64,000 bases of DNA from Candidatus Binatia bacterium. GTDB taxonomy: Bacteria > Desulfobacterota > Binatia > Bin18. Positions 5,170 through 35,393 of this stretch are shown piece after piece; within the stretch, counting starts at the first letter, position 1; each line of letters begins with the position of its first letter. Location of the stretch: contig CAXXHG010000043.1 of NCBI GenBank assembly GCA_963666315.2, forward strand, positions 640,001 to 704,000. The letters are read 5' to 3'. The position numbers were made by a program, and so were the translations under genes. The notes under the pieces were generated by a model. The model worked only from the letters and a program-made list of their open reading frames with translations, made no database searches and was not told where the DNA came from.

Positions 5170-5245
5170 GAGGCTCCCCCTATGAGTGGTGTCAGTGTAG
5201 CCATGCGAGACGCACGCTTTCCGGAACTGGAAAAGGGGCGAGGAT

Positions 5246-5340
5246 CGCCTGCCAGCCCTGCGCCCGTATCCCTTTGTATCAGGACGTAGGCCAGTAGCTT
5301 TGCGTCCCACCCTTTCGAGTGGTTTGCCATTATCAAGCGC
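5246..5340 (-). ncRNA. c-di-GMP-I (GEMM-I)-type riboswitch, C92G variant
   Basis: Minus strand CGCUUGAUAAUGGCAAACCACUCGAAAGGGUGGGACGCAAAGCUACUGGCCUAC...UACGGGCGCAGGGCUGGCAGGCG: GAAA tetraloop, receptor, and P1 CGCUUG/CAGGCG. Confidence 0.88.
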
Positions 5341-14763: not shown

Positions 14764-14766
14764 GGA

Positions 14767-15261: not shown

Positions 15262-15300
15262 CGATTTGCTCCATAAAATACTTGACATTTCTTGAAAATA

Positions 15301-16284: not shown

Positions 16285-16871
16285 GCCCCTACTGCAGCAA
16301 TGCCCTGGCCGGTCTTACAGTTGGTAAAAAGATACGGTCGTAGCCCTCGGACATGTTGCGCATCGCGTGCCATGACTTCGAGGTCGGCACCTACGTACGG
16401 GGCCAGGTCGGTCTTGTTAATGACCAACAGGTCGGAGCGCGTAATCCCCAAGCCTTGTTTGCGGGGGATATCATCTCCTCCCGCAACATCAATGACAAAG
16501 ACAAAGGCGTCCGCAAGTTCGGGTGAGTAGGTTGATGAGAGATTGTCTCCTCCACTTTCCAGGATGATGAGGTCCAGGGCCGGGAACTGCGCTTCCAATT
16601 GTCGTACGGCTTCCAGGTTCATGGTTGGATCTTCGCGGATCACGGTATGCGGGCACCCGCCGGTCTCAACGCCGACGATCCGCTCTGGTGCCAAGAAACC
16701 GCGCCTGCGCAGCCGATCCGCGTCCTCCTGAGTCAGAATGTCATTTGTGACAATGGCGACCTGCTTATTCTGTTGCTGCAGATAGGGTACCAGTTGCTCA
16801 ATCAGGGCCGTCTTCCCCGAGCCGACCGGCCCTCCGACTCCCAGGCGTGGAACCTCTGTTTGTGCTGTCAT
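16254..16871 (-). CDS. ureG: Urease accessory GTPase UreG
   Basis: [28 protein letters not shown]. Confidence 0.97.
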
Positions 16872-16901
16872 ATCTTTGCTCCGTACTGAGACTGTCCTTC
16901 T

Positions 16902-17339
16902 TTACGCATCTTTCCCCGCTTCTTCCGCTTCTTCCGCTTCTTCCGCCGATGAGAGAAAACCCTGCTCCGAGGCTCTCTTGAGCGCTTGTTGGCGGACGGT
17001 CGCATCCTGGGTGTCGCCGTCAGTCAGACTGTTCAAGCCCAGGACTATACGTTGTCCACCGAACGGGACGAGGCTGACGTCTTTCTCTTCTCCAGGCTCA
17101 AACCGAACTGCCGTACCAGCTGGAATGTTCAAGTGTAGACCAAAGGCGGCGCTACGATCAAAACGCAAAGCTCTATTGGCTTCGAAGAAATGATAATGAG
17201 AGCCGACCTGAATGGGGCGATCACCGGTATTGACAACAACCAGAGATTGAGTCGGGCGTCCGGCGTTTAAAGTGAGCGAACCTGCTGCCGGGAGTATCTC
17301 TCCCGGTATTATCGTGTGTGTTGTGTTCTCCGAAGACAT
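16902..17339 (-). CDS. ureB: Urease beta subunit
   Basis: [35 protein letters not shown]. Confidence 0.97.
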
Positions 17340-17398
17340 ACGATTCCTCTCTTGCTTCTTGCAAGCACTGTTTCTATTTGCCACGTACACGTTCCCAA

Positions 17399-17414
17399 CG
17401 CAAGAATCCTGCCT
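17399..17414 (-). promoter_or_regulatory. sigma54 promoter for ureB-ureGDEF
   Basis: AGGCAGGATTCTTGCG (GG-N10-GC); NtrC-like sites TGC-N11-GCC at 17466-17482 and TGT-N11-GCA at 17498-17514. Confidence 0.65.
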
Positions 17415-17682
17415 GCCCTGTATGAGGTGAAAAATGGGCGCGGAGTACGGTTTGTTATATGCAGGTGCCGAAATTATAAGCCTGAGAATCAACACCCTGT
17501 GCTAAAACACAGCAGATTACTGACTGGCGAACGCAGCCCAGTGTCACGTCATCTTAATGTTTACGGAGTTGAAATACGGTCGTGAGGTGTGCCTGGCGCT
17601 TTGATAAGGTTGTATTTATTTGGGACTAGCCGTTTCTGATCTGTGTCGAAAATCACTCTCATTTTTCATTCTTACTTGCTGT

Positions 17683-17698
17683 TGGCCCCCCTTTTGCT
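17683..17698 (+). promoter_or_regulatory. sigma54 promoter for porin-urtABCDE-ureAC
   Basis: TGGCCCCCCTTTTGCT. Confidence 0.7.
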
Positions 17699-17743
17699 CC
17701 TTTCCGTCTCCGCAAGTGCCTCGTTTTCAGTGGAGAGAAAGGA

Positions 17744-19054
17744 GTGAAAGGCTTTATGAAAGAAAGAAGAGGAATCGCCCTCATCGCAGGAATGTGTCTT
17801 GCTTTCGGAGGTTTTGTCGGCGCCCCGACCACCCCCGTGCTGGCATCTGGAGATGAGCTCGGCGAGCTGCGCCAGCTGCTCGCCGAGCAGCACAAGGTCA
17901 TGCAGGCGTTGGAGAGTCGCATGATCGAGCTCGAATCCAAAGAAATAGAGCGAGACGAAAAAGGGGTAGATTTCGGTTACGCTGCCGGGACACGAAAAAA
18001 AGGCTTTGCGGCGGAAGACGTGTATGACAACGGCTTCTTCATACGTAGTAAAGATGACCGGTTCTCGCTGAACGTCAACGGGTTCATTCAGGCCAGATAT
18101 ACGTTGACGGCCCCGGATGAAGGGAAAAGTCGAAATAACTTCGACCTTGCCCTCGGCCGGTTAGCGTTCTCGGGCAATGTATTTGATCCCAAGGTGAAAT
18201 ATTTCTTTCAGTATGAAGGAACTACATTCGGGAATAACAACCGCGCAACCATGCTCGACTGGTGGATGCAGTACAGTTACTCCCAGTACTTAAATGTGCA
18301 AGCGGGGCGTTTCATCCTGCCCTATAGTCGCCAATTCTATACTCATCCGGGTAATTTGTTGTTTACAGATTTGTCTGAAGCGGACTATGCGTTCAACTTG
18401 CAACGGGCGGTTGGTGCGAATATCAGCGGAAAAGTTGGCCGTCTGTCCTACCACGGTGTAGTGACCAACAGTATTCGGGCACTGGATGCTGGGGGACAGC
18501 AGAATACCGGAGCAGAGGTCGCTTGGCAGGGTCGCTTAGAATACGACATCCTCGACTCGTATGGCTATCTGGAAAGCTCACCCACCCCAGCCTCAACACC
18601 GCAGCTGTCGATTGGAATCGCGGCGGCCTTCAATCCGGTTGACGAGGGATCGCGCTTTCAGAACGTGATGCCCGGTGACCGAACGACCAATGTCACCATA
18701 GACGGCGGATTTCGCTATCTGGGCTTAAGCCTGCAGGCCGCCGGGTATTTTCGCAGGAATAATTATGCAGCCATTAGCGCGATCGGCCATGACTGGGGCT
18801 ATTATGGTCAGATCGGCTATTACATCACTGAAAACTTAGAGCTGGCCGGCCGGGTATCTGGCGTAGATTTTCAGTTTGCCAATAACCCCCGCACAGGTGG
18901 TGACGTGCGCGAGTATATGGCCGGCTTCAACTACTATCTGTATGGCCACAATGTCAAACTGCAGGTGGACTACAGTTACCTGGACGGTGATCCGTTCTTC
19001 GGTAATAGCACGCATACAAATCGTCTTCGTATTCAGACCCAAGTTTTATTCTAA
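17744..19054 (+). CDS. OprO/OprP-like outer membrane porin
   Basis: Signal peptide, short coiled coil, GFFIRS.D..FSL...Q.RY, alternating beta strands, C-terminal F. Confidence 0.85.
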   Translation: MKGFMKERRGIALIAGMCLAFGGFVGAPTTPVLASGDELGELRQLLAEQHKVMQALESRMIELESKEIERDEKGVDFGYAAGTRKKGFAAEDVYDNGFFIRSKDDRFSLNVNGFIQARYTLTAPDEGKSRNNFDLALGRLAFSGNVFDPKVKYFFQYEGTTFGNNNRATMLDWWMQYSYSQYLNVQAGRFILPYSRQFYTHPGNLLFTDLSEADYAFNLQRAVGANISGKVGRLSYHGVVTNSIRALDAGGQQNTGAEVAWQGRLEYDILDSYGYLESSPTPASTPQLSIGIAAAFNPVDEGSRFQNVMPGDRTTNVTIDGGFRYLGLSLQAAGYFRRNNYAAISAIGHDWGYYGQIGYYITENLELAGRVSGVDFQFANNPRTGGDVREYMAGFNYYLYGHNVKLQVDYSYLDGDPFFGNSTHTNRLRIQTQVLF

Positions 19055-19082
19055 AAGTACAAAACAGAGGAGGAAAAAGAAG

Positions 19083-20429
19083 ATGGGAGCACGTTTGTAT
19101 ACCCCAAGCTTTTTCGGTTCTTTACGTTCTTTATGGCGCACCCATTCGCGGAGTGCCGTCGTCGTGCTTGGAGCCCTTATCTACGCATTGACCACGGCAG
19201 CCGTCGTCCGGGCAGCCGACCCGATCAAAGTCGGTATTCTGCACTCGCTCAGTGGGACCATGGCGATCAGTGAAACCTCGCTGAAAGACGTGGCGTTAAT
19301 GACGATCGAAGAGATCAACGATAATGGCGGGGTGCTTGGACGCCAGATCGAGCCTGTTGTTGTAGACCCGGCCTCAGACTGGCCGTTGTTTGCTGAGAAG
19401 GCTCGGGGACTGATTCAACAGGAGAAAGTCGCGGTGGTGTTTGGCTGCTGGACCTCAGTGTCACGAAAATCTGTCTTGCCGGTGTTTGAAGAGCTGAACG
19501 GCCTGCTCTTCTACCCGGTTCAGTATGAAGGCGAGGAGTCCTCGTACAACGTCTTCTACACCGGTGCCGCCCCAAACCAGCAAGCCATCCCTGCGGTTGA
19601 GTATTTAATGAGCGAAGACGGTGGGGGGGCCGAGCGGTTTGTGCTCCTGGGAACCGACTATGTCTATCCACGCACCACCAATAAGATTCTCAACTACTTT
19701 CTGGAATCTAAAGGGGTCGCGAAAAAAGACATTATGGAGCTGTACACCCCCTTTGGTCATAGCGACTATCAGACCATAGTGGCGGATATTAAGAAGTTCG
19801 CCGCGGGCAAGCCAACGGCGGTGGTTTCGACCATTAACGGCGACTCGAACGTGCCGTTCTACAAAGAACTTGCCAACCAGGGTCTGAAGGCAGAGGACAT
19901 TCCGGTTATTGCGTTTTCGGTCGGCGAAGAAGAGTTGCGAGGGATTGATACCAAGCCGCTGGTGGGTCATCTGGCTGCATGGAACTACTTCATGTCGGTG
20001 GATACGCCGGAAAATAAAGAGTTCGTGGCGAAGTGGAACGCATATGTCAAGAAACACGACCTCCCTGGTGGAGCCAAACGTGTGACAAATGACCCGATGG
20101 AGGCGACCTATATCGGCATCAAGATGTGGGCCCAGGCGGTGGAACAGGCGGGCACGACGGACGTAGATGCCGTCCGCCAGGCGGTCGGGGGTCAGGTCGT
20201 TCGTGCCCCGTCCGGTTTTGATATTACGATGGACGCCAAGAACCATCACCTGCACAAGCCGGTCTTAATTGCCGAGGTACAGGCAGACGGTCAATTCGAC
20301 ATCGTCTGGAATACCGAGGGACCCGTCCGGGCCCAAGCCTGGAGCCCTTTTATTCCAGATAGTGCCAAGAAGGTGGCTGACTGGACGTACCCCTGGGTGT
20401 GCGGTAATTGTACCGAGCCCAGATTCTAG
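19083..20429 (+). CDS. urtA: Urea ABC transporter substrate-binding protein
   Basis: IKVGILHSLSGTMAISE, FGCWTSVSRK, YPVQYEG, TINGDSN. Confidence 0.97.
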   Translation: MGARLYTPSFFGSLRSLWRTHSRSAVVVLGALIYALTTAAVVRAADPIKVGILHSLSGTMAISETSLKDVALMTIEEINDNGGVLGRQIEPVVVDPASDWPLFAEKARGLIQQEKVAVVFGCWTSVSRKSVLPVFEELNGLLFYPVQYEGEESSYNVFYTGAAPNQQAIPAVEYLMSEDGGGAERFVLLGTDYVYPRTTNKILNYFLESKGVAKKDIMELYTPFGHSDYQTIVADIKKFAAGKPTAVVSTINGDSNVPFYKELANQGLKAEDIPVIAFSVGEEELRGIDTKPLVGHLAAWNYFMSVDTPENKEFVAKWNAYVKKHDLPGGAKRVTNDPMEATYIGIKMWAQAVEQAGTTDVDAVRQAVGGQVVRAPSGFDITMDAKNHHLHKPVLIAEVQADGQFDIVWNTEGPVRAQAWSPFIPDSAKKVADWTYPWVCGNCTEPRF

Positions 20430-20468
20430 CCTACCGAACTTAGATCAACTCGATTCGGAGGGAGAGAT

Positions 20469-20503
20469 GGGCCCGTTGATCTCATATGTAGATTAACGGG
20501 CCC
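20469..20503 (+). terminator. Intercistronic hairpin after urtA
   Basis: gggcccgttgatct...agattaacgggccc. Confidence 0.6.
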
Positions 20504-20517
20504 TTGTCGTTGCCCGT

Positions 20518-22188
20518 ATGCAGATGACCGTGGAAATTTTACCTTGGCGATGGGCCTTAGGGCTCATGCTGGGCGCGGCATTTGGTATCTGGGCGGCGCC
20601 GGCGAGCGCGTCTGATCTGCAATCTGCACTGGCCGGATTAGGGGCAAAGCGGCGGAGTGATATTAAGCAAGCCGTTGTCGCGCTTGGTACGCTGAATGAT
20701 CCAGCTGCGTTGCCCGCGCTCGAAGCCTTGCGCGACCGACGTTTGCGGGTAGATGCGGCAGGCCGCGTCTATATTAGTAGCGAGGATGGGAAGGCTGGCG
20801 ACGCTGGGAAGACTGGAGATACATTCTCTCTAGCGTCGGGTGGAGGGCCGGTTGGCGTTGATGTCAGTCAGTTGCGTACTCCGCGCATCAATAATGTCGT
20901 GCGACGTTCTCTGCGGGTGGTGATTGCGCAGCTCCAATTGCACTCGTCGGATGCCGGCGTTCGCTTGGCTGCAGCCCAGGAATTAAATAAACAGCCCCGG
21001 GCCACACTGCTGGGGGTTCTGCGCGTAGCATTTGACAAGGAAAACGATCCGGCTGTTCGTAACGCCCTAGCGGTTGGGTTAGCCCAAATGCAACTGAAGA
21101 GTGAGGACGGACAAGAACGCTTGGCTGCGATAGCGATGATACGAGAGTCTGGCAATCTCGGCCTCAAATCGCAACTAGAGGCGCTGCTTGCAAAAAATGA
21201 GGATGGCTCGTTCGTCGAGGCTGAGGTGGCGATTCGTGTGGCGGCAGGGAAGGCGTTGGAGAGTTTTGAGCGCACCCAGTTCCTCATTAATACCGCAGGG
21301 AATTTGTTCTACGGGATCAGTCTTGGCAGCATATTGTTGCTCGCTGCGCTGGGTCTTGGCATCACTTTCGGTTTGATGGGAGTGATCAATATGGCGCATG
21401 GCGAGATGTTGATGCTCGGCGCGTATGCGACGTATGTCGTCCAGGGCTTCTTCCAGGAGAGTCTGCCGAATTTTTTCGATTGGTATCTCGCGGCTGCTAT
21501 TCCGGCCGCATTTGGCGTGTGCCTGCTGACCGGCATGATCTTGGAGCGCGGGATTATTCGTTTCTTATACGGACGCCCACTGGAAACCCTGCTGGCCACG
21601 TGGGGGATTAGTCTCGTCCTTATTCAAACTGTCCGTCTGCTGTTTGGGGCGCAGAATGTTCAGGTCGCCAACCCGGCTTGGCTATCCGGCGGAATAGAGG
21701 TGCTGTATGGCGTTGTCCTGCCGTATAGCCGGATAGCCATTATCGTTTTTGTGGTGCTGGTGGTTGGACTGGTGTGGATCATCCTGCAGCGGACGCGCCT
21801 CGGCTTACAAGTCCGGGCGGTGACACAGAATCGGCCTATGGCGGCATGCATGGGGATCTCGGCTGCACGCGTGGATATGTGGACCTTTGGGTTAGGTTCG
21901 GGTATTGCGGGTCTGGGTGGCGTTGCTTTGTCCCAGATCGGCAACGTCGGACCCGAACTGGGGCGATTGTATATCGTCGATTCGTTTATGGTTGTGGTGC
22001 TTGGTGGGGTAGGCAGTATTGTCGGTACGGTCGTTGGGGCGTTGGGACTCGGACTCGTGAATAAGCTGCTCGAACCGGTGTCGGGAGCCGTATTGGGCAA
22101 GATCGGCGTCCTCATTTTTGTGGTGTTATTCATCCAGCGTCGTCCGCAAGGGCTTTTCGCGCTCAAGGGCCGCATGGCCGAAGGGTAA
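20518..22188 (+). CDS. urtB: Urea ABC transporter permease with HEAT-like N-terminus
   Basis: ITFGLMGVINMAHGE, RPLETLLATWG, DSFMVVVLGG. Confidence 0.95.
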   Translation: MQMTVEILPWRWALGLMLGAAFGIWAAPASASDLQSALAGLGAKRRSDIKQAVVALGTLNDPAALPALEALRDRRLRVDAAGRVYISSEDGKAGDAGKTGDTFSLASGGGPVGVDVSQLRTPRINNVVRRSLRVVIAQLQLHSSDAGVRLAAAQELNKQPRATLLGVLRVAFDKENDPAVRNALAVGLAQMQLKSEDGQERLAAIAMIRESGNLGLKSQLEALLAKNEDGSFVEAEVAIRVAAGKALESFERTQFLINTAGNLFYGISLGSILLLAALGLGITFGLMGVINMAHGEMLMLGAYATYVVQGFFQESLPNFFDWYLAAAIPAAFGVCLLTGMILERGIIRFLYGRPLETLLATWGISLVLIQTVRLLFGAQNVQVANPAWLSGGIEVLYGVVLPYSRIAIIVFVVLVVGLVWIILQRTRLGLQVRAVTQNRPMAACMGISAARVDMWTFGLGSGIAGLGGVALSQIGNVGPELGRLYIVDSFMVVVLGGVGSIVGTVVGALGLGLVNKLLEPVSGAVLGKIGVLIFVVLFIQRRPQGLFALKGRMAEG

Positions 22189-22192
22189 GGAC

Positions 22193-23407
22193 GTGCCGAA
22201 CGCCTCATCCATATCTCGCGAATCCAGCGAAAGCCCAACTCGACTCCTTGTGCAGCCCGCGGCGCAGCAGACTGCGGCGCAGCAGACGGCAGGGGCGGCG
22301 TCTGCGGGTTCCGAGAGACCGCGCCTCCATACCCGTCGGGAGTGGATCCTCATAGGGACACTGACCGCAATCACGCTCATACTGGTGCCCGTCTTCAACC
22401 AGTTACCGGCTGAGTCTGCGGTGCATCTTCCTGATTATTTCATCCCGCTGTTCGGAAAATTTCTGTGTTATGCGCTGGTGGCCTTGGCCGTTGACCTGAT
22501 CTGGGGCTACGCGGGCATCCTCAGCTTGGGGCACGGCGTGTTCTTCGCCCTCGGCGGCTATCCCATGGGCATGTATCTGATGCGTGCGATTGGGACAGAA
22601 GGCGTCTACCGGAGTGCGCTCCCGGACTTTATGGTGTTTCTCGATTGGAAGGAACTGCCGTGGTTCTGGTACGGGTTCAGTAACTTTGGATTTGCGCTGC
22701 TGATGGCGCTTTTCGTGCCCGGATTCCTGGCCTATATCTTTGGCTATTTTGCATTTCGTTCCCGTATCCGCGGGGTATATTTTTCCATTATTACTCAGAC
22801 CATGACGTATGCCCTGATGCTGCTCTTTTTCCGGAATAATACTGGCTTTGGCGGGAATAATGGCCTGACCGACTTTAAGCGTATTCTGGGCTTTTCCCTG
22901 CAGGCGCAGTCGACCAAGCTCGGTCTGTATATGGTCTCGGTCGTGGTTTTATTGGGCGCCTATCTGATGTGTCGCTATCTGGTGGTCTCGAAGCTCGGCC
23001 GTGTATTGACCGCCGTGCGTGACGCCGAGAGTCGGCTCATGTTCTGCGGCTACAATCCGCACAGCTATAAACTGTTTTTATGGACGCTGTCGGCCGTCAT
23101 GTGTGGTCTGGCGGGAGCTTTATATGCGCCTCAGGTCGGTATTATTAATCCGAGTGAAATGCAGCCCTCGAACTCTATTGAGATGACCATCTGGGTGGCA
23201 GTGGGCGGGCGAGGAACCCTGTCCGGAGCGCTTGTCGGTGCATTTTTGGTGAATGGGCTGAAGAGTTGGTGTACGACTGCGTTTCCCGATCTGTGGCTAT
23301 ATATCCTGGGCGTTTTGTTCATCGCTGTCACCTTGTTCCTGCCGCGTGGCATTGTCGGCCTCTTGCCGACCAATGATGAGTCAACGAAGACCCGGGCGCA
23401 GTCATGA
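22193..23407 (+). CDS. urtC: Urea ABC transporter permease
   Basis: DLIWGYAGILSLGHG, LPDFM, GGNNGLT, WVAVGGRG. Confidence 0.95.
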   Translation: MPNASSISRESSESPTRLLVQPAAQQTAAQQTAGAASAGSERPRLHTRREWILIGTLTAITLILVPVFNQLPAESAVHLPDYFIPLFGKFLCYALVALAVDLIWGYAGILSLGHGVFFALGGYPMGMYLMRAIGTEGVYRSALPDFMVFLDWKELPWFWYGFSNFGFALLMALFVPGFLAYIFGYFAFRSRIRGVYFSIITQTMTYALMLLFFRNNTGFGGNNGLTDFKRILGFSLQAQSTKLGLYMVSVVVLLGAYLMCRYLVVSKLGRVLTAVRDAESRLMFCGYNPHSYKLFLWTLSAVMCGLAGALYAPQVGIINPSEMQPSNSIEMTIWVAVGGRGTLSGALVGAFLVNGLKSWCTTAFPDLWLYILGVLFIAVTLFLPRGIVGLLPTNDESTKTRAQS

Positions 23408-24231
23408 CTGCGCATGTCACACAAGAAGGCCCCGGCTGGGAAGGCAATCCGGCCTTGGCGCACATTGCCCGGCCCGGCGAGATCGATACGAGTCATGGTG
23501 TTATCCTGTATATCGAAAATCTCACTGTCAGTTTTGACGGCTTCAAGGCCCTGGATGGCCTGAATTTTTACCTGAACACCGGCGAGCTGCGCTGCCTGAT
23601 TGGTCCGAACGGGGCTGGAAAAACCACGCTCATGGATGTGATTACCGGGAAAACTCGGCCGGATACGGGCACGGTGTTTTTCGGAAATGTGGTGGATCTC
23701 ACCCAGCTGTCGGAGTACGAAATCGCCCTGGCCGGAATTGGACGCAAGTTTCAGCGACCGACGGTATTTCAGGGACATAGCGTTTTTGAGAACCTGGAAT
23801 TGGCGATGCAGGCCGATAAGGGCGTGTGGCAGAGTCTTATCGCCCGGCTGACGGGTGAACAGCGCACGCGGATTGAAGCCACGGCGGAAACTATTGGTCT
23901 CATCGGACAGCTGCATACCCGGGCAGGGTTATTATCCCACGGGCAAAAACAATGGTTAGAAATCGGCATGCTGTTGATGCAAGATCCACAGCTGCTGTTA
24001 GTCGACGAGCCGGTCGCCGGGATGACCCAGCATGAGACCGAGCGCACGGCCGAGCTACTGGTGTCGCTTGCGGGCAAACGGACTGTGGTAGTGGTCGAGC
24101 ACAACATGGAGTTTGTGCGGAGCTTGGCCCGCCAGGTGACGGTACTTCACGAAGGGCGTATCCTGGCCGAAGGCACGATGGAGGCTGTGCAGAATGACCC
24201 ACGGGTGGTTGAGGTGTATTTAGGAACGTAG
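23404..24231 (+). CDS. urtD: Urea ABC transporter ATP-binding protein
   Basis: GPNGAGKT, GRKFQRP, LSHGQKQWLEIGM. Confidence 0.96.
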   Translation: MTAHVTQEGPGWEGNPALAHIARPGEIDTSHGVILYIENLTVSFDGFKALDGLNFYLNTGELRCLIGPNGAGKTTLMDVITGKTRPDTGTVFFGNVVDLTQLSEYEIALAGIGRKFQRPTVFQGHSVFENLELAMQADKGVWQSLIARLTGEQRTRIEATAETIGLIGQLHTRAGLLSHGQKQWLEIGMLLMQDPQLLLVDEPVAGMTQHETERTAELLVSLAGKRTVVVVEHNMEFVRSLARQVTVLHEGRILAEGTMEAVQNDPRVVEVYLGT

Positions 24232-24251
24232 GAAAGTGGGCTGGGGCGGCA

Positions 24252-24947
24252 ATGATCAAAATTCGCGGACTCAACCAAGCGTACGGAGAGAGTCATATCT
24301 TATGGGATGTTGAGTTGACTGTCCCGACGGGATCCTGCACCTGCCTCATGGGCCGCAATGGGGTCGGCAAGACGACGCTGCTCAAAACGATTATGGGCAC
24401 GTTGCCCATCACGTCAGGCAGCCTCCAGTTCGAGGGCAGTGAATTAAGCCATCGTCCCGCCGAGCTGCGCGCGCGCCTGGGCATAGGCTATGTCCCGCAG
24501 GGACGAGAGATCTTTCCTCAACTGACGGTGGAGGAGAATTTGCGCCTCGGCCTGCAGGCTCGTCGGGATAATGTATGGGCTATCCCGGAGTCTGTCTTTC
24601 ATTTTTTTCCGGTCCTGCAACAGATGTTAGGCCGTCGGGGTGGAGACCTGTCTGGTGGGCAACAACAGCAGCTTGCCATCGCCCGAGCCTTGGTGATTGA
24701 TCCCAAGCTGCTGATTCTCGACGAGCCGACGGAAGGCATACAGCCGAACATCGTGCACGAGATCGGGAAAATTCTCCTGCGGCTGAATCGAGAAGAGAAT
24801 CTCACTATTTTACTGGTCGAGCAGAAACTCCCCTTTGCCCGACGTTTGGCTGATGCGTTTGCGGTCATGGAAAAAGGATCTATCGTTGCCGCCGGGGCCA
24901 TTGCGGATTTGAATGATGACGTGGTGCGCAGACATTTATCTGTATGA
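24252..24947 (+). CDS. urtE: Urea ABC transporter ATP-binding protein
   Basis: GRNGVGKT, YVPQGR, LSGGQQQQL, DEPTEGIQP. Confidence 0.96.
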   Translation: MIKIRGLNQAYGESHILWDVELTVPTGSCTCLMGRNGVGKTTLLKTIMGTLPITSGSLQFEGSELSHRPAELRARLGIGYVPQGREIFPQLTVEENLRLGLQARRDNVWAIPESVFHFFPVLQQMLGRRGGDLSGGQQQQLAIARALVIDPKLLILDEPTEGIQPNIVHEIGKILLRLNREENLTILLVEQKLPFARRLADAFAVMEKGSIVAAGAIADLNDDVVRRHLSV

Positions 24948-24969: not shown

Positions 24970-25272
24970 ATGAACCTCACCCCACGTGAGCAAGAGAAAT
25001 TGCTGATCTATGTCGCTGCCCAGTTGGCGCGTGAACGACGTGCTCGTGGTCTCAAGCTCAACTATCCTGAGGCCATGGCCCTGATCACCAGTGCGATTCT
25101 CGAAGGAGCGCGGGACGGCCAATCCGTTGTAGACTTGATGTCGTACGGTGCCACCATTCTGACGCGTGAAGATGTGATGGACGGCATTCCGGAGATGATT
25201 GATCTAGTCCAGGTGGAAGCGACATTTCAGGACGGTACCAAGCTTGTCAGCGTGCATCAGCCTATTCGGTAA
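24970..25272 (+). CDS. ureA: Urease gamma subunit
   Basis: [30 protein letters not shown]. Confidence 0.98.
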
Positions 25273-25281
25273 GGAGGACGT

Positions 25282-27000
25282 ATGAGTCGGACAATTGAAC
25301 GACGCCACTACGCTGAGATGTTTGGCCCGACGACGGGCGATCGGCTCCGGTTGGCTGACACCGAGTTGATCATCGAAATTGAGCAGGATCACACCGTATA
25401 CGGAGATGAGGTCAAGTTCGGTGGGGGCAAGGTGATACGCGACGGTATGGGCCAATCGCCTCTCCACACCTCTGCTCAGGGTGCTCCCGACCTCGTTATT
25501 ACGAACGCGGTTATTCTTGATCACTGGGGCATAGTCAAAGCCGATGTCGGGATCAAAGATGGGCGTATTTGCGGTATCGGCAAGGCCGGGAATCCATTGC
25601 TCATGGATGGAGTCTGCCCAGAACTCGTGATTGGGCCTGGCACAGAAATTCTCGCAGGGGAAGGCAAGATTCTTACTGCTGGCGGACTGGACGTGCATAT
25701 CCATTTCATCTGCCCCCAGCAGATTACCGAAGCACTCGCCTCGGGCGTGACGACGATGATAGGCGGTGGCACTGGTCCGGCCACCGGTACGAATGCGACG
25801 ACGTGCACACCCGGGGCGTGGAATATCGCCCGTATGTTGGAGTCGATTGAACACTATCCGCTCAATTTCGGCTTTCTGGCTAAGGGTAACGCCTCTCGAC
25901 CTGAGGCCCTCCATGAGCAGATCGAAGCCGGGGCGGTAGGCCTCAAGTTGCATGAAGACTGGGGCTCGACTCCTGCGGCTATTGATACCGCTCTCTCGGT
26001 GGCAGACGAACACGATGTCCAGGTCGCCATACACACCGACACGCTGAACGAGACCGGCTTTGTTGAGGATACAATCGCCGCGTTCAAAGGCCGTACCATA
26101 CATACCTACCATACTGAAGGAGCCGGCGGCGGGCATGCTCCCGATATTATCAAGGTGTGTGGATTGCCGAATGTACTACCGTCTTCAACAAATCCGACCC
26201 GGCCCTTTACCGTCAACACAATAGACGAGCATCTGGATATGCTTATGGTCTGCCACCACCTCGACCCAGACGTCCCTGAAGACGTGGCCTTTGCCGAGTC
26301 CCGCATTCGACCCGAGACGATAGCCGCTGAGGATGTCCTGCACGATATTGGGGCCTTTAGTATGATGGCATCTGACTCGCAAGCCATGGGTAGAGTCGGA
26401 GAAGTCATTATTCGGACGTGGCAGACCGCTCACAAAATGAGAGTTCAACGCGGCCGACTTTCAGAAGAAATCGGCCAGAATGATAATTTTCGGGTCAAAC
26501 GCTATGTGGCAAAATATACCATCAACCCGGCATTAGCCCATGGGATTGCGAGCCATGTCGGTTCGGTTGAGGCTGGCAAACTGGCAGATCTGGTGCTCTG
26601 GCAGCCCGCATTCTTTGGAGTCAAACCCGACATTGTTTTAAAAGGCGGTTTTATCGTCTGGGCAGCAATGGGTGATGCCAATGCGTCGATCCCGACCCCA
26701 CAGCCGGTATTTGGGCGGCCTATGTTTGGACACTTCGGGCGCGCACCGGCAACGCTTTCGTATAGTTTCGTCTCGCGTGCAGCCTATGACCGTGGGATTG
26801 CTCAGCAGCTGGGCCTGCAAAAACAGGTCATGCCTGTACAGGACTGTCGGAGCGTGCAGAAAAAGGACCTGGTGCATAATCAGCTAATGCCGCATATAGA
26901 GGTCAACCCGGAGACGTATGTGGTGAAGGCCGACGGCGAGGTGCTGACGTGCGAGCCTGCCCGAACGCTGCCCTTGGCCCAGCGCTATTTTCTTTTCTAA
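25282..27000 (+). CDS. ureC: Urease alpha subunit
   Basis: [27 protein letters not shown]-terminal AQRYFLF. Confidence 0.98.
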
Positions 27001-27005
27001 AGAGC

Positions 27006-27035
27006 GGGACGAGGCTACGTCGACTGGCTCGTCCC
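27006..27035. terminator. Hairpin after ureC
   Basis: gggacgag...ctcgtccc. Confidence 0.5.
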
Positions 27036-27199
27036 TTCTCGTCAGTCGATGAGACTCGCGTTCGAAATAAATTTTCGTACAGGTCTTGAGAGAGATCGCA
27101 AACAATATGCTGCTCAGGTCACCGCAAGGTTGACGCAGCGAGATTGAAAACAAGAGCGGGGAAGAAAGAAGTCATGAGAGGTGAGGGTCAGCAGAACAG

Positions 27200-27333
27200 G
27201 GAAACACACAAGTAGCAGCGAGAAGGGAAGGCTAAGGGCGGCTGGAGGGACAGCCGCCCCAGGGGCGTCTAGAAGAGGGCGGAAGGAAGGCTAACCCTCT
27301 TCTAAAACTCAATAATGAGCATTGACTTACAAG
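27200..27333 (-). ncRNA. Candidate sigma54-dependent sRNA with CU-rich loops (3' end uncertain)
   Basis: Downstream of an orphan sigma54 promoter; two strong hairpins; UUAGCCUUCC present twice; no credible ORF. Confidence 0.55.
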
Positions 27334-27343
27334 TGAGGTATAG

Positions 27344-27359
27344 AGCATGAAGTATGCCA
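27344..27359 (-). promoter_or_regulatory. sigma54 promoter with NtrC-like site at 27410-27426
   Basis: TGGCATACTTCATGCT; TGC-ttatcttttta-GCA upstream. Confidence 0.7.
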
Positions 27360-27616
27360 GGTTGAATGACTAGGAAATACTACGCTTTTTGTTGTTTTCT
27401 GCTTTGGGCTGCTTATCTTTTTAGCAATGGGCTCGTCCTGAACTGTTACTCTTCCAACAGGGGCAGGAGAGAGCTGTGTTGCTCTTTTGACTTTCTCTGT
27501 CTTGAGCGATTAATGAAGGCATGCAACTGAAACGCAATCTAACAGGCAGTAAGCCTGAACATGACACTGCGTTTCGGATATGACAGAAAAATACGACCAC
27601 GCTGACCAACGGCGGC

Positions 27617-29374
27617 ATGACTATGCTTCCTCACGGACATTATCTCAGTGAACAGCACTTCTTAATTTTCCTCGTGCAGATTCTCCTATTGCTGACATTG
27701 GCGCGTGGATTTGGAGAAGTCCTCCGGCATTGGGGGCACCCGCCCGTTGTCGGAGAAATTTTGGTGGGCTTGCTCCTCGGCCCGACCCTGCTCGGACGCA
27801 TAGCGCCTGAATTGTATCAGGCCCTTTTCCCACCCGATCCGATACAGCACACCATGCTGGCAACAGTGGCTTGGTTCGGCGTGCTTTTACTGCTCTTGGA
27901 GACCGGCCTTGAAGTCGATGTATCTGCGGCCTGGCAGCAGAGGGGCTCTGCGCTGCGCATCGGGATCATCGGCGTCATTATTCCCTTGGCGCTTGGCTTT
28001 CTTCTGTCTCTTTTCCTGCCCGACCGGTATCTCGCCGCGCCGGACCAACGGATTATATTTGCGTTGTTTTTAGGAACGACTATGGCCATTAGTGCCATGG
28101 TCATTATCGCGCGCGTATTGCATGACCTTGATCTCGTCAAGAGTGACCTCGGGCTCTTAACCCTGTGTGGTTATGCGGTCAACGATATTTTGGCGTGGGT
28201 CATTCTCAGCCTCGTGTTTGCCTCTGCGGCCAGTGCCACGCTGAGCGTCGGCGCTGTTGTCATATTGCTGAGTACTGCCGTCGGCTTTACGGCCTTTTGT
28301 CTGTCGTTCGGCTTGCGCATTGTTGACCGATCTCTGGCCGGACTGGTGAAACAGCTCCCTCAACAACCCGGCACAGTTCTCACTTTTGTGTGCTGCTTAG
28401 GACTCCTGTGCGGAGCAGTAACGCAGTGGATCGGATTGACCGCGCTGCTGGGATTTTTTCTGGCTGGGATTATGGCTGGAGACGCGAGCGCCTTATCTGA
28501 GCGAGTGCGGCAGATTCTGACCCAAATGGTCCACGCTATTTTTGTGCCGCTGTACTTTGCCAGCATTGCTCTACAGATAGACTTCCTGGAAAACTTTGAC
28601 ACCTTCCTGGTGCTTTTCGTGACTGTCGTTTCGATTGGGGGCAAGTATTTCGGGGCGTGGCTGGGAGCACAACGGGCTGGGCTATCTAACGTGGACTGCG
28701 TCTCAATCGGTATTGCCTTTACCCCAAGCGGAGTCACCGGCATTGTGGTGGCAGCGGTCGCGGTTGAGTATCAGATCATTACCATTCCGGTGTTTGTCTC
28801 CATCGTTTTCTCCGCGCTGATCTCTTCCCTTATTGTGGGCCCGTGGCTGGTCTGGTCGCTTCGGCGCAGACCGACCATAAATATCAGCGAGCTTTTTGTA
28901 CGCCGCGCCATGATTCCCAATCTGCAGGCAACGACCCGCCAGGCTGTGATCCAAGAACTGTGTCAGGAGTTGGCAGAACACGACCACGTGCCGGATTATG
29001 AGACTTTATCTGCGGCGGTCTGTGCGCGGGAGAAATTGATGGGAACCGGCGTCGGAAATGGTATTGCTGTGCCCCACGCTCGGCTGGAGGTACTCTCCAA
29101 ACCTATCATTACCTGTGGGCGCTCGCTGATTGGCGTGGACTGGGACGCGCCGGATGGTTTGCCGGTGCATCTCGTCTTTCTCTTGTTAACGCCCACCCAG
29201 GATGAGGGGGCGCAGCTCCAGATTCTCGCTGCGCTGGCGCGTACCATGGGGGAGGAAGCAGTGCGTAATGCACTCGTGCAAGCCCCGAATGAACACGAAC
29301 TGTGGCGGCTCTTGCAAGAGACGCTCAGGTCCCAAGACCTCGTCCTAAATGAACAAACGCATGGACGGGAATAA
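27617..29374 (+). CDS. Cation:proton antiporter (CPA2) fused to PTS EIIA domain
   Basis: P.VVGEILVGLLLGP, GLEVD, AVNDILAW, multiple TMs; C-terminal REKLMGTGVGNGIAVPHAR...DAPDG.PV.LVFLL. Confidence 0.92.
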   Translation: MTMLPHGHYLSEQHFLIFLVQILLLLTLARGFGEVLRHWGHPPVVGEILVGLLLGPTLLGRIAPELYQALFPPDPIQHTMLATVAWFGVLLLLLETGLEVDVSAAWQQRGSALRIGIIGVIIPLALGFLLSLFLPDRYLAAPDQRIIFALFLGTTMAISAMVIIARVLHDLDLVKSDLGLLTLCGYAVNDILAWVILSLVFASAASATLSVGAVVILLSTAVGFTAFCLSFGLRIVDRSLAGLVKQLPQQPGTVLTFVCCLGLLCGAVTQWIGLTALLGFFLAGIMAGDASALSERVRQILTQMVHAIFVPLYFASIALQIDFLENFDTFLVLFVTVVSIGGKYFGAWLGAQRAGLSNVDCVSIGIAFTPSGVTGIVVAAVAVEYQIITIPVFVSIVFSALISSLIVGPWLVWSLRRRPTINISELFVRRAMIPNLQATTRQAVIQELCQELAEHDHVPDYETLSAAVCAREKLMGTGVGNGIAVPHARLEVLSKPIITCGRSLIGVDWDAPDGLPVHLVFLLLTPTQDEGAQLQILAALARTMGEEAVRNALVQAPNEHELWRLLQETLRSQDLVLNEQTHGRE

Positions 29375-29400: not shown

Positions 29401-30816
29401 CTAGAGCAACTTATAGCGTTTCATCCGTTCGCGCAGTACGTTCCGACTCACGCCGAGCAGGCGTGCGGCCTGGACTTGATTATAGCGGGAGAGTTCGAGT
29501 GCCTTGGAAACAACAAGCTGTTCGGACCGGGCGAGAACGTTGCCCACATGCTGAGAAAACAACTCTTCAAGGGTTGTGTTGAGAGCGATTTCGGTACTTG
29601 GGGAGGAGGCTTCGACTGCGGTTTTGTTGCTGATGTCATGCAAGGGCAGATCGTCTTCGGTAATCAAGGGCCCGCGTGTATTGAGTACGGCCTGCGCAAT
29701 AATATTCTCCAGCTCGCGCACATTCCCTGGCCATGTATAGGAGAGCAGTTTTTCACACGCTGTGGGAGAAAATCCTTGCGGTCCGAGCGTCTTAGCCTTC
29801 CCAGTCTTCCTATCGTTGGTGTGGAGCTGCAGCAGGTGGTTCGCGATGAGGAGGATGTCGTCGCCTCGCTCCCGTAAAGGGGGCAGATTGATACGAACGA
29901 CATCGAGACGATAATACAGGTCTTCGCGAAAACGCCCCTCCCGCATAAGTCTGTCGAGGGATTGGTTCGTTGCCGCGATAATCCGTATATCGATGTGTCG
30001 CGGCTGCCGAGCGCCTAACCGGGATATTTCCCGCTCTTGTAAGACCCGCAGCAGTTTGGACTGCAACAGCGGCGGCATGTCGCCGATTTCATCCAAGAAC
30101 AGTGTCCCGCCATGGGCCAGTTCGAATTTCCCCGGCCGCGATTCCACCGCACCGGAGAAGGCGCCCTTTTCGAATCCAAAGAGTTCACTTTCGAGCAGAG
30201 CGTCCGGAATCGCGGCACAGTTGATAGCCAGGAATGGGCCCTTACTCCGTTGGGAATAGGTATGCAGCGCACGTGCAACGAGCTCTTTGCCGGTGCCGCT
30301 CTCGCCTGTGATAAGCACGGTGATATCTCGGGCGGCACTCTTGCCGATAATCTTATACACCTCCTGCATGGCCCGGCTGTTGCCCAGCATAGGGACGGCA
30401 TCCGGCGGACGCGTCTCGGGGATGGCTTGAGGCAGCTGCTGGGGCATTTCTACGGAGGCGTGTTTTTGCAGAGTCTGAGCAATGAGTTGCTTGAGGGCCG
30501 CGACGTCAAACGGCTTCACGAGATAGTCGTCGGCGTCTAGCGCTGTCGAACGGATGGCTGTCTCGGCAGACACAAAGGCCGTCATCATGATAACGGGGAG
30601 GCTTGGTCGGCGCTGTTTGACTTCTTCCAGCGTATCCAGCCCGTCACGGTTCGGCATACGGACGTCCATGAGGATCAGGCGTAAGGCGGGATCGTCTATC
30701 TTGCTGAGGGCTTCGTCGCCTGAATAGGCAGACAGGATTTCGTATTCCTGGCCCAGAACACGCCGAAAGGAGTAATGGACGTTGCGTTCGTCATCAACAA
30801 CAAGAATTTTTTCCAT
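29401..30816 (-). CDS. NtrC-family sigma54-dependent response regulator
   Basis: Receiver, GESGTGKE, ESELFG..KGAFSGA, LFLDEIG, WPGNVREL, Fis-type HTH. Confidence 0.95.
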   Translation of the reverse strand: MEKILVVDDERNVHYSFRRVLGQEYEILSAYSGDEALSKIDDPALRLILMDVRMPNRDGLDTLEEVKQRRPSLPVIMMTAFVSAETAIRSTALDADDYLVKPFDVAALKQLIAQTLQKHASVEMPQQLPQAIPETRPPDAVPMLGNSRAMQEVYKIIGKSAARDITVLITGESGTGKELVARALHTYSQRSKGPFLAINCAAIPDALLESELFGFEKGAFSGAVESRPGKFELAHGGTLFLDEIGDMPPLLQSKLLRVLQEREISRLGARQPRHIDIRIIAATNQSLDRLMREGRFREDLYYRLDVVRINLPPLRERGDDILLIANHLLQLHTNDRKTGKAKTLGPQGFSPTACEKLLSYTWPGNVRELENIIAQAVLNTRGPLITEDDLPLHDISNKTAVEASSPSTEIALNTTLEELFSQHVGNVLARSEQLVVSKALELSRYNQVQAARLLGVSRNVLRERMKRYKLL

Positions 30817-30820
30817 AGTG

Positions 30821-32023
30821 TTATAGTGGCAGCCGAATGACGACCGTTGTGCCTTGCCCCGGTTTGGAGAAGAGCCGGAGTCGGCCGTTGTGTCCTTCAA
30901 TGATACGTTGCGATATGGACAGCCCGAGACCTGTACCGCCTTCTTTGGTAGTAAAAAATGGATCAAAAAGCTGGGACCGAACCAGGGGTGAGATGCCTTC
31001 TCCCTCGTCGGCTATGGTAACCAGGAAGCTGCCACCACTAGTCGTGATCCGGACCGTGAGTGTTCCCCCTCGCGCCATCGCCTGGAGGGCGTTGAGCAAG
31101 AGGTTGAGGAAGACTTGTTTGATCTGGGCACCGTCCACCCAGGCCAAAGGCAGCTCCTGCGCCCACTCTGTATAGATCAAGATCTCGCGAATACGCGCTT
31201 CCGGTCCGATCAACAGCAAGGTCTCCTGCATGATTTCTTCGAGCCGTTCACGTTGAAAATGAGGCGGGCGGGGACGGGCGAATTCCAGAAACTGCTCAAG
31301 CAAGAGCTTCATGCGCTGTAACTCGTCCTGGACAACACTGAGATCATCGGCCAACGCATTATCGAGCGGACTCTCAGATGTTCTGTCCTGCGCCATGGCA
31401 TAAATGAGCATGCTGACCGTATTCAACGGGTTACGGAGTTCGTGGGCCAGGCCGGCTGAGAGTTTGCCCAGGGCTGCCAATTTTTCGGACTGACGCAGCT
31501 GTTCCCTAGACTGCAGTTCTTCCCGGTGCAAGGTCGCATTCTCAATGGCGATGGCGGATTGGCTGGCAAGGAGGGTGAGTAGGCGGATATCATTCTCCTC
31601 AAAGCAGCGTGGCTCAGTCGTGTATACATTCAGCACGCCGATAATATCGGTCTTAGTCCGGAGCGGAACGGAAAGCAGTGAGCACAATCCCTCACGCCGG
31701 GCTAAGTCGGCAACGCGGTAGCGCGTTTCTTTGCGGACATCGGGAGTGTAGAGCGGCCTCCCGGTTTTGATGACTTCGCCGGTCAGGCTAGTTGCCACCT
31801 CGCGGGCCGGCTGGGCAAGATATTTCTCGCTAGCGCCGTGAGTGGCCACAGGACGTAAGGTCCCTTCTTCAGGATCAAGCAGGAGGATAGAGGATACGCG
31901 CGCGGCCATGAGGCGACAGGCATGAGCGACTATGCGCTGCAAAACTTCTTCAAGCTGCAGCGTTGACGAGATTTCCGCACCAACGGTGAACAGAGCTTCG
32001 AGACGTTCTTGGAGCGCATTCAT
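30821..32023 (-). CDS. Cytoplasmic GAF-domain histidine kinase
   Basis: GAF (SLLSVPL...IGVLNV), LAHELRNPL H-box, PFFTTK.GGTGLGL. Confidence 0.93.
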   Translation of the reverse strand: MNALQERLEALFTVGAEISSTLQLEEVLQRIVAHACRLMAARVSSILLLDPEEGTLRPVATHGASEKYLAQPAREVATSLTGEVIKTGRPLYTPDVRKETRYRVADLARREGLCSLLSVPLRTKTDIIGVLNVYTTEPRCFEENDIRLLTLLASQSAIAIENATLHREELQSREQLRQSEKLAALGKLSAGLAHELRNPLNTVSMLIYAMAQDRTSESPLDNALADDLSVVQDELQRMKLLLEQFLEFARPRPPHFQRERLEEIMQETLLLIGPEARIREILIYTEWAQELPLAWVDGAQIKQVFLNLLLNALQAMARGGTLTVRITTSGGSFLVTIADEGEGISPLVRSQLFDPFFTTKEGGTGLGLSISQRIIEGHNGRLRLFSKPGQGTTVVIRLPL

Positions 32024-32251: not shown

Positions 32252-32650
32252 TCAGCCCGATAGCAGAACTCCTTGGAGAGGACATCTAGGAAGTACCGTA
32301 GGCCACGTTCCGAGGTTAAATCCGCACAGCGCGTAGGTCAGGATGCCGATGCAGATAATAAAAGTGTTTTTGAATAAGATATTGACCGTGTTCTTGGATT
32401 GGGCCAAATCCGACTCAAGTGAGGCAAAGCCCAGGTGCATAATGAACACGAGCGCCGCCGCGATCATCATCCACAAAGTATGCGCGGTAAACAGGGCGAA
32501 GCCCGGTGAAGCAGCAAATTCCGCATAATCTTTGTATTGTGGAGCGTCTTCGGCAAAAGCGAGAGACGCAAGCACACCTGTGCTTAGAGCAGCGCCTGTG
32601 GTTAAAACAGCGAATGATCCAATAGAAAATGGAGAAAATAGACGTTTCAT
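32252..32650 (-). pseudogene. amtB: Ammonium transporter AmtB, truncated by a large deletion
   Basis: TLWMMIAAALVFIMHLGFASLES...SKNTVNILFKN...GFNL then lost; follows glnK. Confidence 0.88.
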
Positions 32651-32793: not shown

Positions 32794-34424
<1,631 letters not shown>

Positions 34425-34483: not shown

Positions 34484-34499
34484 AGCAAAGCTGATGCCA
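34484..34499 (-). promoter_or_regulatory. sigma54 promoter for porin-glnK-amtB, NtrC-like site at 34560-34576
   Basis: TGGCATCAGCTTTGCT; TGC-acagaagagcg-GCA. Confidence 0.85.
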
Positions 34500-34685
34500 G
34501 ACCTGGAGCGATAAAAACTGTAGAAAAATCAAAGATTTTCTGCTTTTGTCAGAAAAAATTGCACAGAAGAGCGGCAATTTGGCAGGCGTCTGCTTAAACT
34601 CTGGACAGACTAAGTTGACACAACCCCTATGATTTCTGCTATGTGTCCTGTAAGTGCCTAAAAAAGTCTGAAAGGAGAAACGACT

Positions 34686-35300: not shown

Positions 35301-35334
35301 TGCACTAGGCATTAGCCTAGATAATCACGCTTTG

Positions 35335-35364
35335 CGGAGGGGCACGGTATGCCATGCCCCTCCG
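35335..35364 (+). terminator. Hairpin (terminator or REP-like)
   Basis: cggaggggca...tgcccctccg followed by tgttt. Confidence 0.55.
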
Positions 35365-35393
35365 TGTTTAGAGCCCTTTGCTCAGAATGCCTC

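Follow-up and report, generated by a model that had tools for sequence, protein, structure and literature searches.

Does the intergenic spacer next to the urease genes of a Candidatus Binatia bacterium encode a regulatory small RNA (sRNA), and what could such an RNA do? The DNA in question is a stretch of 64,000 nucleotides (assembly GCA_963666315.2, contig CAXXHG010000043.1, positions 640,001 to 704,000), here called the window, and its genome is referred to as G000. The spacer (27001-27616) is bounded by ureC (25282-27000, plus strand) on one side and a cation/proton antiporter gene on the other. A preliminary description of the window had placed in this spacer a sigma-54 promoter with an NtrC-like dyad upstream and two RNA stems downstream. 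Promoter, dyad and both stems were all found on the minus strand where it had put them (Table 1), and its statement that no credible open reading frame (ORF) follows the promoter was borne out on that strand. As judged from comparison of genomes, the element is very probably an RNA gene whose pairs covary and which is conserved together with its sigma-54 promoter.

Conservation, fold and strand of the element

In the 4.99-Mb assembly of G000 the 616-nt spacer matched only itself, all other matches being 18 nt or shorter. A BLAST search of 41 genomes gave matches in 17, including G000 (16 of 24 in the genus, none of 16 outside the family); the block conserved in this search (27236-27377) comprises the hairpins and the promoter. 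A genus-wide BLAST search gave matches in 19 of 28. A MAFFT alignment (A1) was made of 19 sequences that contained only the RNA, started after the promoter and were not fitted to any structure. RNAalifold predicted from it three hairpins with compensatory changes at three pairs. The covariance model R1, built from A1 and thus devoid of the promoter, matched positions 27336..27204 of the window with 114.6 bits. At E <= 0.001 it matched one place per genome, G000 included. In the family it found 28 of 55 genomes including G000, with 22 of the 27 others of the genus and 5 of the 27 that belong to nine other genera. Eleven of 151 genomes of a class-wide sample were matched, all in the genus; 18 other families of the class, represented by 132 genomes, gave no match, with filters strict enough to miss weak matches. 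When 185,579 species genomes were scanned for an exact pattern, it occurred at 25 places, 24 of which also matched R1. All 25 are in metagenome-assembled genomes (MAGs); most are labelled Candidatus Binatia bacterium, four uncultured Enterobacteriaceae, and one each Thermodesulfobacteriota, delta proteobacterium and Nannocystaceae. The place in the Nannocystaceae MAG (L071) is coding sequence without an R1 match and was discarded as a false positive.

Promoter and both stems are thus kept across the genus and into four other genera, and the element is present only once in G000. The preliminary description had named lack of conservation and membership in a multicopy repetitive extragenic palindromic (REP) family as findings that would speak against its proposal; the first does not apply, and the single copy excludes a REP family. 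GC-rich hairpins in an intergenic region downstream of ureC could nevertheless be a repeat element, a terminator of ureC or a chance feature. To this we assign practically no probability, as the element is single-copy, is conserved where ureC is absent and shows strong covariation. In addition, the element lies 236 nt beyond the ureC stop codon, and a separate hairpin is found at 27003-27040. Rfam 15, searched with the whole window, gave no match to the element at gathering scores. At E up to 10 (26950-27700) and, for the loci of eight relatives, at E up to 1, only chance-level matches to microRNA, snoRNA and SIB families appeared. The Rfam scan that the preliminary description had suggested therefore points to no known family, and the element is a new sRNA family of a known kind.

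The covariation analysis that had likewise been suggested revealed strong covariation. When 33 distinct homologs were aligned to R1 (alignment A2), 96.5% of 767 cells formed standard pairs, compared to 50-56% when the partners were slid by one to three columns. Twenty of the 24 pairs were changed on both sides, and none of 500 shuffles reached the observed score. Both-side changes were seen in all nine pairs of hairpin 1, in which 97-99% of the cells are paired, and compensatory changes in 8 of the 11 pairs of hairpin 2. A2 is fitted to the structure of R1 and hence biased towards it, but this is tempered by the unfitted MAFFT alignment, which gave the same helices.

The RNA strand can be read from the same pairs. 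On the minus strand 740 of the 767 cells are paired, 47 of them as G-U, versus 702 on the opposite strand, and this difference identifies the minus strand as the RNA strand. The minus-strand RNA is predicted to fold with -49.3 kcal/mol (z = -5.8), and none of 200 shuffles was as good. The preliminary description had offered, as an alternative, that the plus strand is functional and acts as a CsrA/RsmA sponge. Indeed, GGA is found in both hairpin loops of the plus strand, which also folds (z = -2.9). However, on this strand 38 more cells are unpaired, because G-U becomes C-A, the conserved promoter faces the other way, and CsrA (PF02599) was not found in any of six genomes searched (G000 and five closed genomes of the genus), while positive controls were detected. 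The G-U pairs together with the lack of CsrA lead us to reject the sponge, which has hardly any probability left. Hfq was also not found in these six genomes, G000 being 92% complete; again the controls were detected.

Less certain is the 3' end. The block shared with the nearest relatives ends at ~27228, and hairpin 2 may double as terminator. A U-run follows hairpin 2 only in some homologs and is not adjacent to it in G000 or most of the genus, which leaves the 3' end uncertain and makes read-through possible. The homolog in G064 continues after hairpin 2 with UUUUCUUUUUU, a textbook U-run; it is also the only one of 29 homologs that lacks the promoter.

Promoter, neighbouring genes and probable autonomy of the element

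The promoter TGGCATACTTCATGCT (27359..27344) has the 10-nt spacing of GG and GC that is typical of the sigma-54 consensus, and rpoN is encoded in G000 (Sigma54_DBD, 212 bits; G000:C30). The pattern TGGCAYNNNNNNTGCW occurs four times in the window where 0.76 are expected; four were reached in 2 of 100 shuffles, and one of the other three matches is the promoter of the porin-glnK operon. TGGCAY-N5-YTGC is found 14-32 nt upstream of the model start in 28 of 29 homologs with the promoter being outside the model, and it also precedes six of the seven distant homologs detected by the model alone. The proximal TGC-N11-GCA dyad is located at -65 to -67 from the first T of the promoter in 20 of the 22 homologs of the genus that were examined. 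Repeats related to the distal site occur as CTGYT-N8-ARCAG upstream in the genus and also in G045 and G059 of other genera. In five closed genomes the strict dyad motif was always present at the sRNA promoter, and the sole other recurrent match was inside coding sequence. A relaxed sigma-54 promoter pattern matched 86 times in the genome on both strands; 12 of these matches had a TGC-N11-GCA within 220 nt (about six expected by estimate), only three of them at -67 to -77.

The antiporter-EIIA gene is upstream of the element and divergent from it in all 19 loci of the genus examined. Its product, an antiporter fused to a PtsN-like (nitrogen-PTS EIIA) domain, has 75-84% amino acid identity across the genus. 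Downstream of the element, convergent ureC is found in G000, G020 and G024. The other 16 loci have a same-strand gene for an Alginate_exp-family porin, 150-290 nt downstream of the element, and in two loci of other genera (L079, L059) the element is ~300-390 nt before a same-strand gene for a nirB-type nitrite reductase. The word orphan, which had been used for this promoter, is hence true of G000, G020 and G024, but in most relatives a same-strand porin or nirB gene is located downstream, and usually this gene has a sigma-54 promoter of its own.

This arrangement raises the question whether the following nitrogen-assimilation gene, the porin gene in the genus and nirB in other genera, has in the element its cis-acting leader or attenuator or a tandem promoter upstream. 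The element would then resemble the sigma-54/NtrC-driven NalA and nasF leaders, and the copy in G000 would be a relic after the urease cluster had replaced the porin gene. Apart from the same-strand genes, three of the 16 porin loci lack an intact second promoter, and without a clear U-run in most of the genus read-through into the next gene is plausible. On the other hand, 13 of the 16 porin genes have their own TGGCTCCAGCATTGCT, a sigma-54-type promoter, between element and start codon, and a sigma-54-like promoter of its own likewise precedes nirB in both loci. The spacer to the downstream gene is variable in length and not conserved, and in L079 and L060 the element is found after a porin gene, not before it. 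Between G000 and G020 or G024, in all of which ureC is convergent, only RNA, promoter and upstream site align (89-90% identity), whereas the 228 nt towards ureC cannot be aligned. Furthermore, four relatives have a weaker second copy (19-28 bits) between the main copy and the antiporter gene, each with its own TGGCATGCTTTATGC promoter. The loops of these tandem copies (UUUCCCUCCUUUA) resemble those in other genera.

Leaders of the ANTAR/NasR type, to which the nirB leader NalA and the nasF leader belong, consist of a terminator plus two hexaloop hairpins, and the hexaloops carry A and G. They have no promoter between leader and gene, but here the downstream genes mostly have their own; the loops are C/U-rich with 13-15 nt and 6 nt, and the copy in G000 has no downstream gene. 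What the NrsZ paper says of NalA is that it is an RNA with an RpoN consensus (PMC4253122). Selection on RNA and promoter alone, the separate promoters of the downstream genes and the tandem copies with promoters of their own favor an independent RNA gene that is kept by selection, and we regard a leader as rather improbable.

No homolog of the porin of the relatives was found in G000 (tblastn, E <= 1e-3; genome 92% complete). In G020 (L002:1919-2347, in sense of the sRNA) a stop-to-stop frame downstream of the sRNA with the sequence ...SVSASLRVRG... resembles the N terminus of that porin and may be a remnant from the arrival of the urease cluster.

Table 1 Positions of the predicted sRNA gene, its control sites and neighbouring genes in the window, and of the diverged second copies in relatives.
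Feature	Position	Strand	Remarks
Predicted small RNA	27215..27333	-	Start ~27333 (12 nt after the -12 GC); 3' end ~27235-27205
Hairpin 0, short 5-bp stem	27307..27320	-	Compensatory changes in 3/4 pairs
Hairpin 1	27268..27306	-	10-bp stem 27304..27270; loop 27294..27280 = UUAGCCUUCCUUCCG, containing CCUUCCUUCC
Hairpin 2, GC-rich	27235..27260	-	9-10-bp stem; loop 27250..27245 = UCCCUC(C)
3' tail motif UUAGCCUUCC, third CCYUCC copy	27226..27235	-	CCYUCC after hairpin 2 in most homologs
Sigma-54 (-24/-12) promoter TGGCATACTTCATGCT	27344..27359	-	Conserved in relatives; rpoN in genome
Proximal upstream site TGCTAAAAAGATAAGCA (TGC-N11-GCA, NtrC-like dyad; candidate)	27410..27426	-	50 nt before promoter
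Distal inverted repeat CTGTTGGAAGAGTAACAG (TGT-N10-ACA type), candidate activator-binding site	27443..27460	-	-101 from promoter; putative binding
CPA2 cation/proton antiporter with C-terminal PtsN-like EIIA domain	27617..29374	+	Pfam Na_H_Exchanger and PTS_EIIA_2; NCBIfam PtsN-like
NtrC-family response regulator/sigma-54 activator, candidate for the sRNA promoter	29401..30966	-	Pfam Response_reg, Sigma54_activat and HTH_8
GAF-HisKA-HATPase sensor kinase, partner of the activator	30821..32023	-	Pfam and NCBIfam
glnK (PII)	32794..33132	-	Pfam; operon with BBP2 porin (33159-34424), amt remnant (32252-32650), kinase and activator
Sigma-54 promoter of porin-glnK operon, TGGCATCAGCTTTGCT	34484..34499	-	TGC-N11-GCA at 34576..34560, 60 nt upstream
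Tandem second copies, diverged	L074:3123-3251(-); L073:1868-2024(+); L076:3097-3231(-); L014:890-1044(+)		Each with own TGGCATGCTTTATGC promoter

Nitrogen setting, loop motifs and proposed function

The element had been assigned to a nitrogen island, and this setting was confirmed: glnK, a remnant of amt, a gene for an NtrC-like activator, glnE as well as urea transport and urease genes are present. The promoter of the porin-glnK operon, with which the element's promoter had been compared, also exists with its TGC-N11-GCA, and AAAGCAGAAAA is common to both promoters, 35-36 nt before TGGCAT. Nitrogen genes are found beside the element in three contexts: glnK-amt with the two-component system, urea transport/urease together with glnE, and nirB. 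The link to nitrogen is based on these three genomic contexts and on the promoter layout shared with the glnK operon. Orthologs of the neighbouring activator are encoded in the same place in G018 and G021.

Some peculiarities of these genes may be added. The amt gene after glnK (32252-32650, minus strand) is cut to ~113-132 residues, compared to a full gene of 501 residues in the same place in G018; the short form results either from a deletion or from faulty assembly. Urease is encoded on both strands (16902-17495, minus; 24970-27000, plus): ureB together with the accessory genes ureG, ureD, ureE and ureF is on the minus strand (14077-17495), and ureA and ureC are on the plus strand after the urea transporter genes. 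A sigma-54-type promoter TGGCCCCCCTTTTGCT at 17684-17699 (plus strand) precedes a porin-like ORF (17744-19054), the urea ABC transporter genes (18876-24947), ureA and ureC, and a palindrome, CTGTGCTAAAACACAG, is located ~185 nt upstream of it.

The second characteristic of the RNA is its loops. The 16S rRNA of G000 ends with GGAUCACCUCCUUUCU, and the CCYUCC motifs of the element thus copy the core of the anti-Shine-Dalgarno (anti-SD) sequence; the likeness of the loops to an anti-SD, claimed in the preliminary description, holds against the 16S 3' end of the organism itself. Loop 1 has a CCYUCC-type core (CCUUCCUUCC, CCCUCCUU or CCUCCUCCUUCC) in all 33 distinct homologs, as read by eye, and loop 2 is mostly UCCCUCC. 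A third CCYUCC usually follows directly after hairpin 2, but is absent in the near relative G024. The second copy of UUAGCCUUCC that had been noted at 27235..27226 is present, but it is not conserved as such; only the shorter CCYUCC recurs after hairpin 2.

From these features a model of the function can be drawn. The element would be a stand-alone sRNA gene of ~105-125 nt on the minus strand, presumably transcribed from the sigma-54 promoter. The promoter is probably switched on by an activator of the NtrC family that occupies the conserved sites 50-100 bp upstream. Nitrogen limitation is the likely trigger, and in the genus the likely activator is the kinase/regulator pair of the glnK-amt operon, at a distance of 2 kb. 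For the RNA, a fold with three hairpins is predicted that would expose CCYUCC in loops 1 and 2 and in the tail that follows hairpin 2. The RNA would act in trans and independently of Hfq: CCYUCC would pair with the purine-rich ribosome-binding sites of several mRNAs and block initiation of translation. Since neither Hfq nor CsrA was found and the motifs are of the anti-SD type, Hfq-independent pairing appears the most likely mode. We hold this model of a sigma-54 sRNA with nitrogen control and anti-SD pairing to be probable, but with clear reservations.

Several observations weigh against it, in addition to the fit of A2 to its own structure and the missing U-run. No transcript of the sRNA was seen: 24 sequencing runs were listed, of which two were recorded as RNA, and the contigs compared with the stretch carry neither strand nor ends and thus speak neither for nor against a transcript. 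The contigs of X17-X19, those from RNA runs included, cover only 26821-27013, which is the 3' end of ureC of relatives (95-99% identity), and one 151-nt contig of a run that is probably DNA (X20) extends over 27220-27335 with 12 differences. TGC-N11-GCA was found at its position in none of the six promoter-bearing homologs of the divergent type from other genera, and the scan of the five closed genomes revealed no regulon with the strict motif. The best NCBIfam match of the neighbouring activator is NtrC with 450 bits, below the cut-off of 558.6, and G000 has at least 11 paralogs of it.

A rival reading is that the signal is not nitrogen. The sRNA could be sigma-54-dependent but answer to a cue that is sensed via the GAF domain of the kinase or via the PtsN-like antiporter, for example potassium or energy status. 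The kinase has its best family matches in AtoS and ZraS rather than in NtrB, and the regulator is about equal in score to NtrC and AtoC, both below cut-off. Moreover, element and antiporter-EIIA gene are divergent without exception in the genus, and other nitrogen genes that share its motif were not detected. But the two-component genes form one operon with glnK and amt under a similar promoter, and in other genera the element is beside nirB without the antiporter. For these reasons we consider a non-nitrogen signal unlikely and keep nitrogen limitation as the preferred trigger.

The proposed targets are a further weak point. In a crude gene call of G000 (5350 ORFs), duplexes of loop 1, loop 2 and tail with 5334 start regions were calculated with RNAduplex. 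The mean of -15.5 kcal/mol did not separate the real loops from five shuffled seed sets (-14.6 to -15.2 kcal/mol). The first percentile was -26.9 versus -24.3 to -25.5 for the shuffled sets, a difference that does not convince, with top matches dominated by the non-conserved tail. As partners, the start regions of the neighbouring porin and nirB genes in 10 relatives ranged from the 5th to the 62nd percentile, which also speaks against the model. The glnE start region was in the top 0.5% for loop 2, as one match among 25 neighbours and with an SD-sequestering hairpin of its own. This region (35320-35380, plus strand) has a perfect inverted repeat of 10 bp (CGGAGGGGCA ... UGCCCCUCCG), by which the SD would be paired with codons 2-6. 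A GGAAGG-type SD precedes 81 of 5338 genes; among the 19 annotated ones are an ammonium transporter, two DUF1302 outer-membrane proteins and a Porin_O_P, which are leads without a baseline.

The result of the target scan would also be expected if the RNA were made as proposed but bound a protein or the ribosome instead of mRNAs, either titrating a pyrimidine-binding protein such as S1 or mimicking the 16S 3' end. The motif is the generic anti-SD core and should confer little target specificity, with GGAGG found upstream of 877 of 5338 crude gene starts, and several copies of one short loop motif are the usual design of protein sponges. Against this stands that no candidate protein was identified, CsrA and Hfq being missing from the six genomes, and that known RNAs with repeated anti-SD loops (alpha-r14/NfeR1) pair at start regions (PMC10746234). 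Binding to protein or ribosome is in our view improbable, somewhat more so than the non-nitrogen signal, and pairing with mRNAs is retained as the mode of action.

It is tempting to speculate further that the RNA is the founding member of a Binatia-specific family of sigma-54-driven anti-SD mimics that serve as a general post-transcriptional arm of the nitrogen-stress response and compete with ribosomes for the strong SD sites of many mRNAs, for example of porins and transporters; this is a doubtful extension of the model. If true, each RNA would carry the 16S anti-SD core in up to three copies and sometimes stem from tandem genes, in a lineage without Hfq or CsrA. No small RNA of Binatota was found in the literature searched, which leaves out ~1.7 million PubMed Central articles and most papers in subscription journals. 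Together with the lack of a match in Rfam, this would make the element a first candidate riboregulator for Candidatus Binatia. Its support by covariation and promoter conservation is better than that of most computational sRNA candidates, and its alignment could already be put forward as a new RNA family, although the mechanism itself would not surprise specialists. The element also offers a concrete way into nitrogen regulation (uptake of urea, nitrite and ammonium) in organisms that have not yet been grown and are known from MAGs.

Some other features of the window were noted. Rfam 5_ureB_sRNA matches with 78.5 bits at 25435-25732 (minus strand), antisense inside ureC; we suspect that the match is due to the conserved coding sequence of urease and not to an RNA gene. 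A c-di-GMP-I riboswitch (67.9 bits, 5248-5338, minus strand) overlaps the annotated start of an ORF for a FliA/WhiG-type sigma factor (4324-5310, minus strand), which may be under c-di-GMP control and truly start further downstream. The gene for a UbiE/MenG-type methyltransferase (9899-10677, plus strand) is split into overlapping ORFs (9899-10432 and 10381-10677), which suggests a frameshift, and an IS4-family transposase (330 bits) is encoded at 51521-52732 (plus strand).

Comparison with known small RNAs

Small RNAs with a sigma-54 promoter and an activator encoded nearby (LuxO in the case of Qrr) are represented by Qrr, GlmY and CrcZ, which act by Hfq-dependent pairing, as RapZ decoy and as Hfq/Crc sponge. 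The Binatia RNA has in common with them the sigma-54 promoter beside an activator gene, but sequences, structures and proposed modes of action differ. CrcZ is mentioned in the NrsZ paper (PMC4253122).

The preliminary description had seen a likeness to cuckoo or CcsR RNAs. These belong to the alpha-r14 family, which is presumably contained in Rfam 15. The repeated anti-SD design is indeed shared, but Rfam gave no match, and the identical CCUCCUCCC of the three hairpins is missing: the loops are CCUUCCUUCC and UCCCUC(C), and hairpin 0 has no such motif. In alpha-r14/NfeR1 this nonamer is in unpaired regions of all three hairpins and provides redundant seeds that pair at start regions; NfeR1 is induced by nitrogen stress and wired to NtrBC, with a sigma-70 promoter that is activated by LsrB and repressed by NtrC (PMC10746234). 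Three hairpins, a repeated unpaired anti-SD motif and a tie to nitrogen, here a probable one, are common to both, but the Binatia RNA has the shorter CCYUCC in two loops and the tail, a sigma-54 promoter and stems from an unrelated lineage.

NrsZ of Pseudomonas is transcribed from an RpoN promoter of the type TGGCAC-N5-TTGCW beside ntrC and is induced by NtrB/C under nitrogen limitation. It has repeated stem-loops with one conserved loop motif, ACAGGCAG, in modules whose number varies between species, and it is processed to modules of ~40 nt. In the model of the authors, who call the mechanism still unknown, it relieves a self-inhibitory fold that sequesters the SD of rhlA (PMC4253122). An RpoN-type promoter, here with an NtrC-like site, and repeated loop motifs are also predicted for the Binatia RNA. 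However, its loops carry CCYUCC, ACAGGCAG is absent, and the predicted effect is occlusion of the SD.

The closest gene layout among known RNAs is that of Pxr from Myxococcus and other Cystobacterineae. Pxr is ~108 nt long, and both a triple stem-loop and a sigma-54 promoter are predicted for it; it adjoins nla19, the gene for a sigma-54-dependent response regulator, in a host without Hfq, and is single-copy in most species with tandem paralogs in some genera, each having its own sigma-54 promoter (PMC5568312, PMC5684412). Compared by description, the Binatia RNA has all these layout traits, but Pxr gates fruiting-body development, the Binatia RNA is found in a context of nitrogen assimilation, and the local synteny differs, pxr being located between nla19 and a NADH dehydrogenase gene. 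Among 151 genomes from the phylum to which the Nannocystaceae MAG belongs, a sample that may hold few Pxr-bearing species, R1 gave only one 24-nt hairpin match (E = 0.015) and none over the full length; analogy with Pxr is therefore claimed, not homology. If the model is true, the Binatia RNA would be an independent example of two recurring designs, the sigma-54 sRNA beside a two-component system and the RNA with repeated anti-SD loops; on the more speculative reading of a Binatia-specific family of anti-SD mimics, it would be a third, independent invention of the NfeR1/CcsR design and of the Pxr gene layout. By analogy, its design appears closest to those of Pxr, NrsZ and NfeR1.

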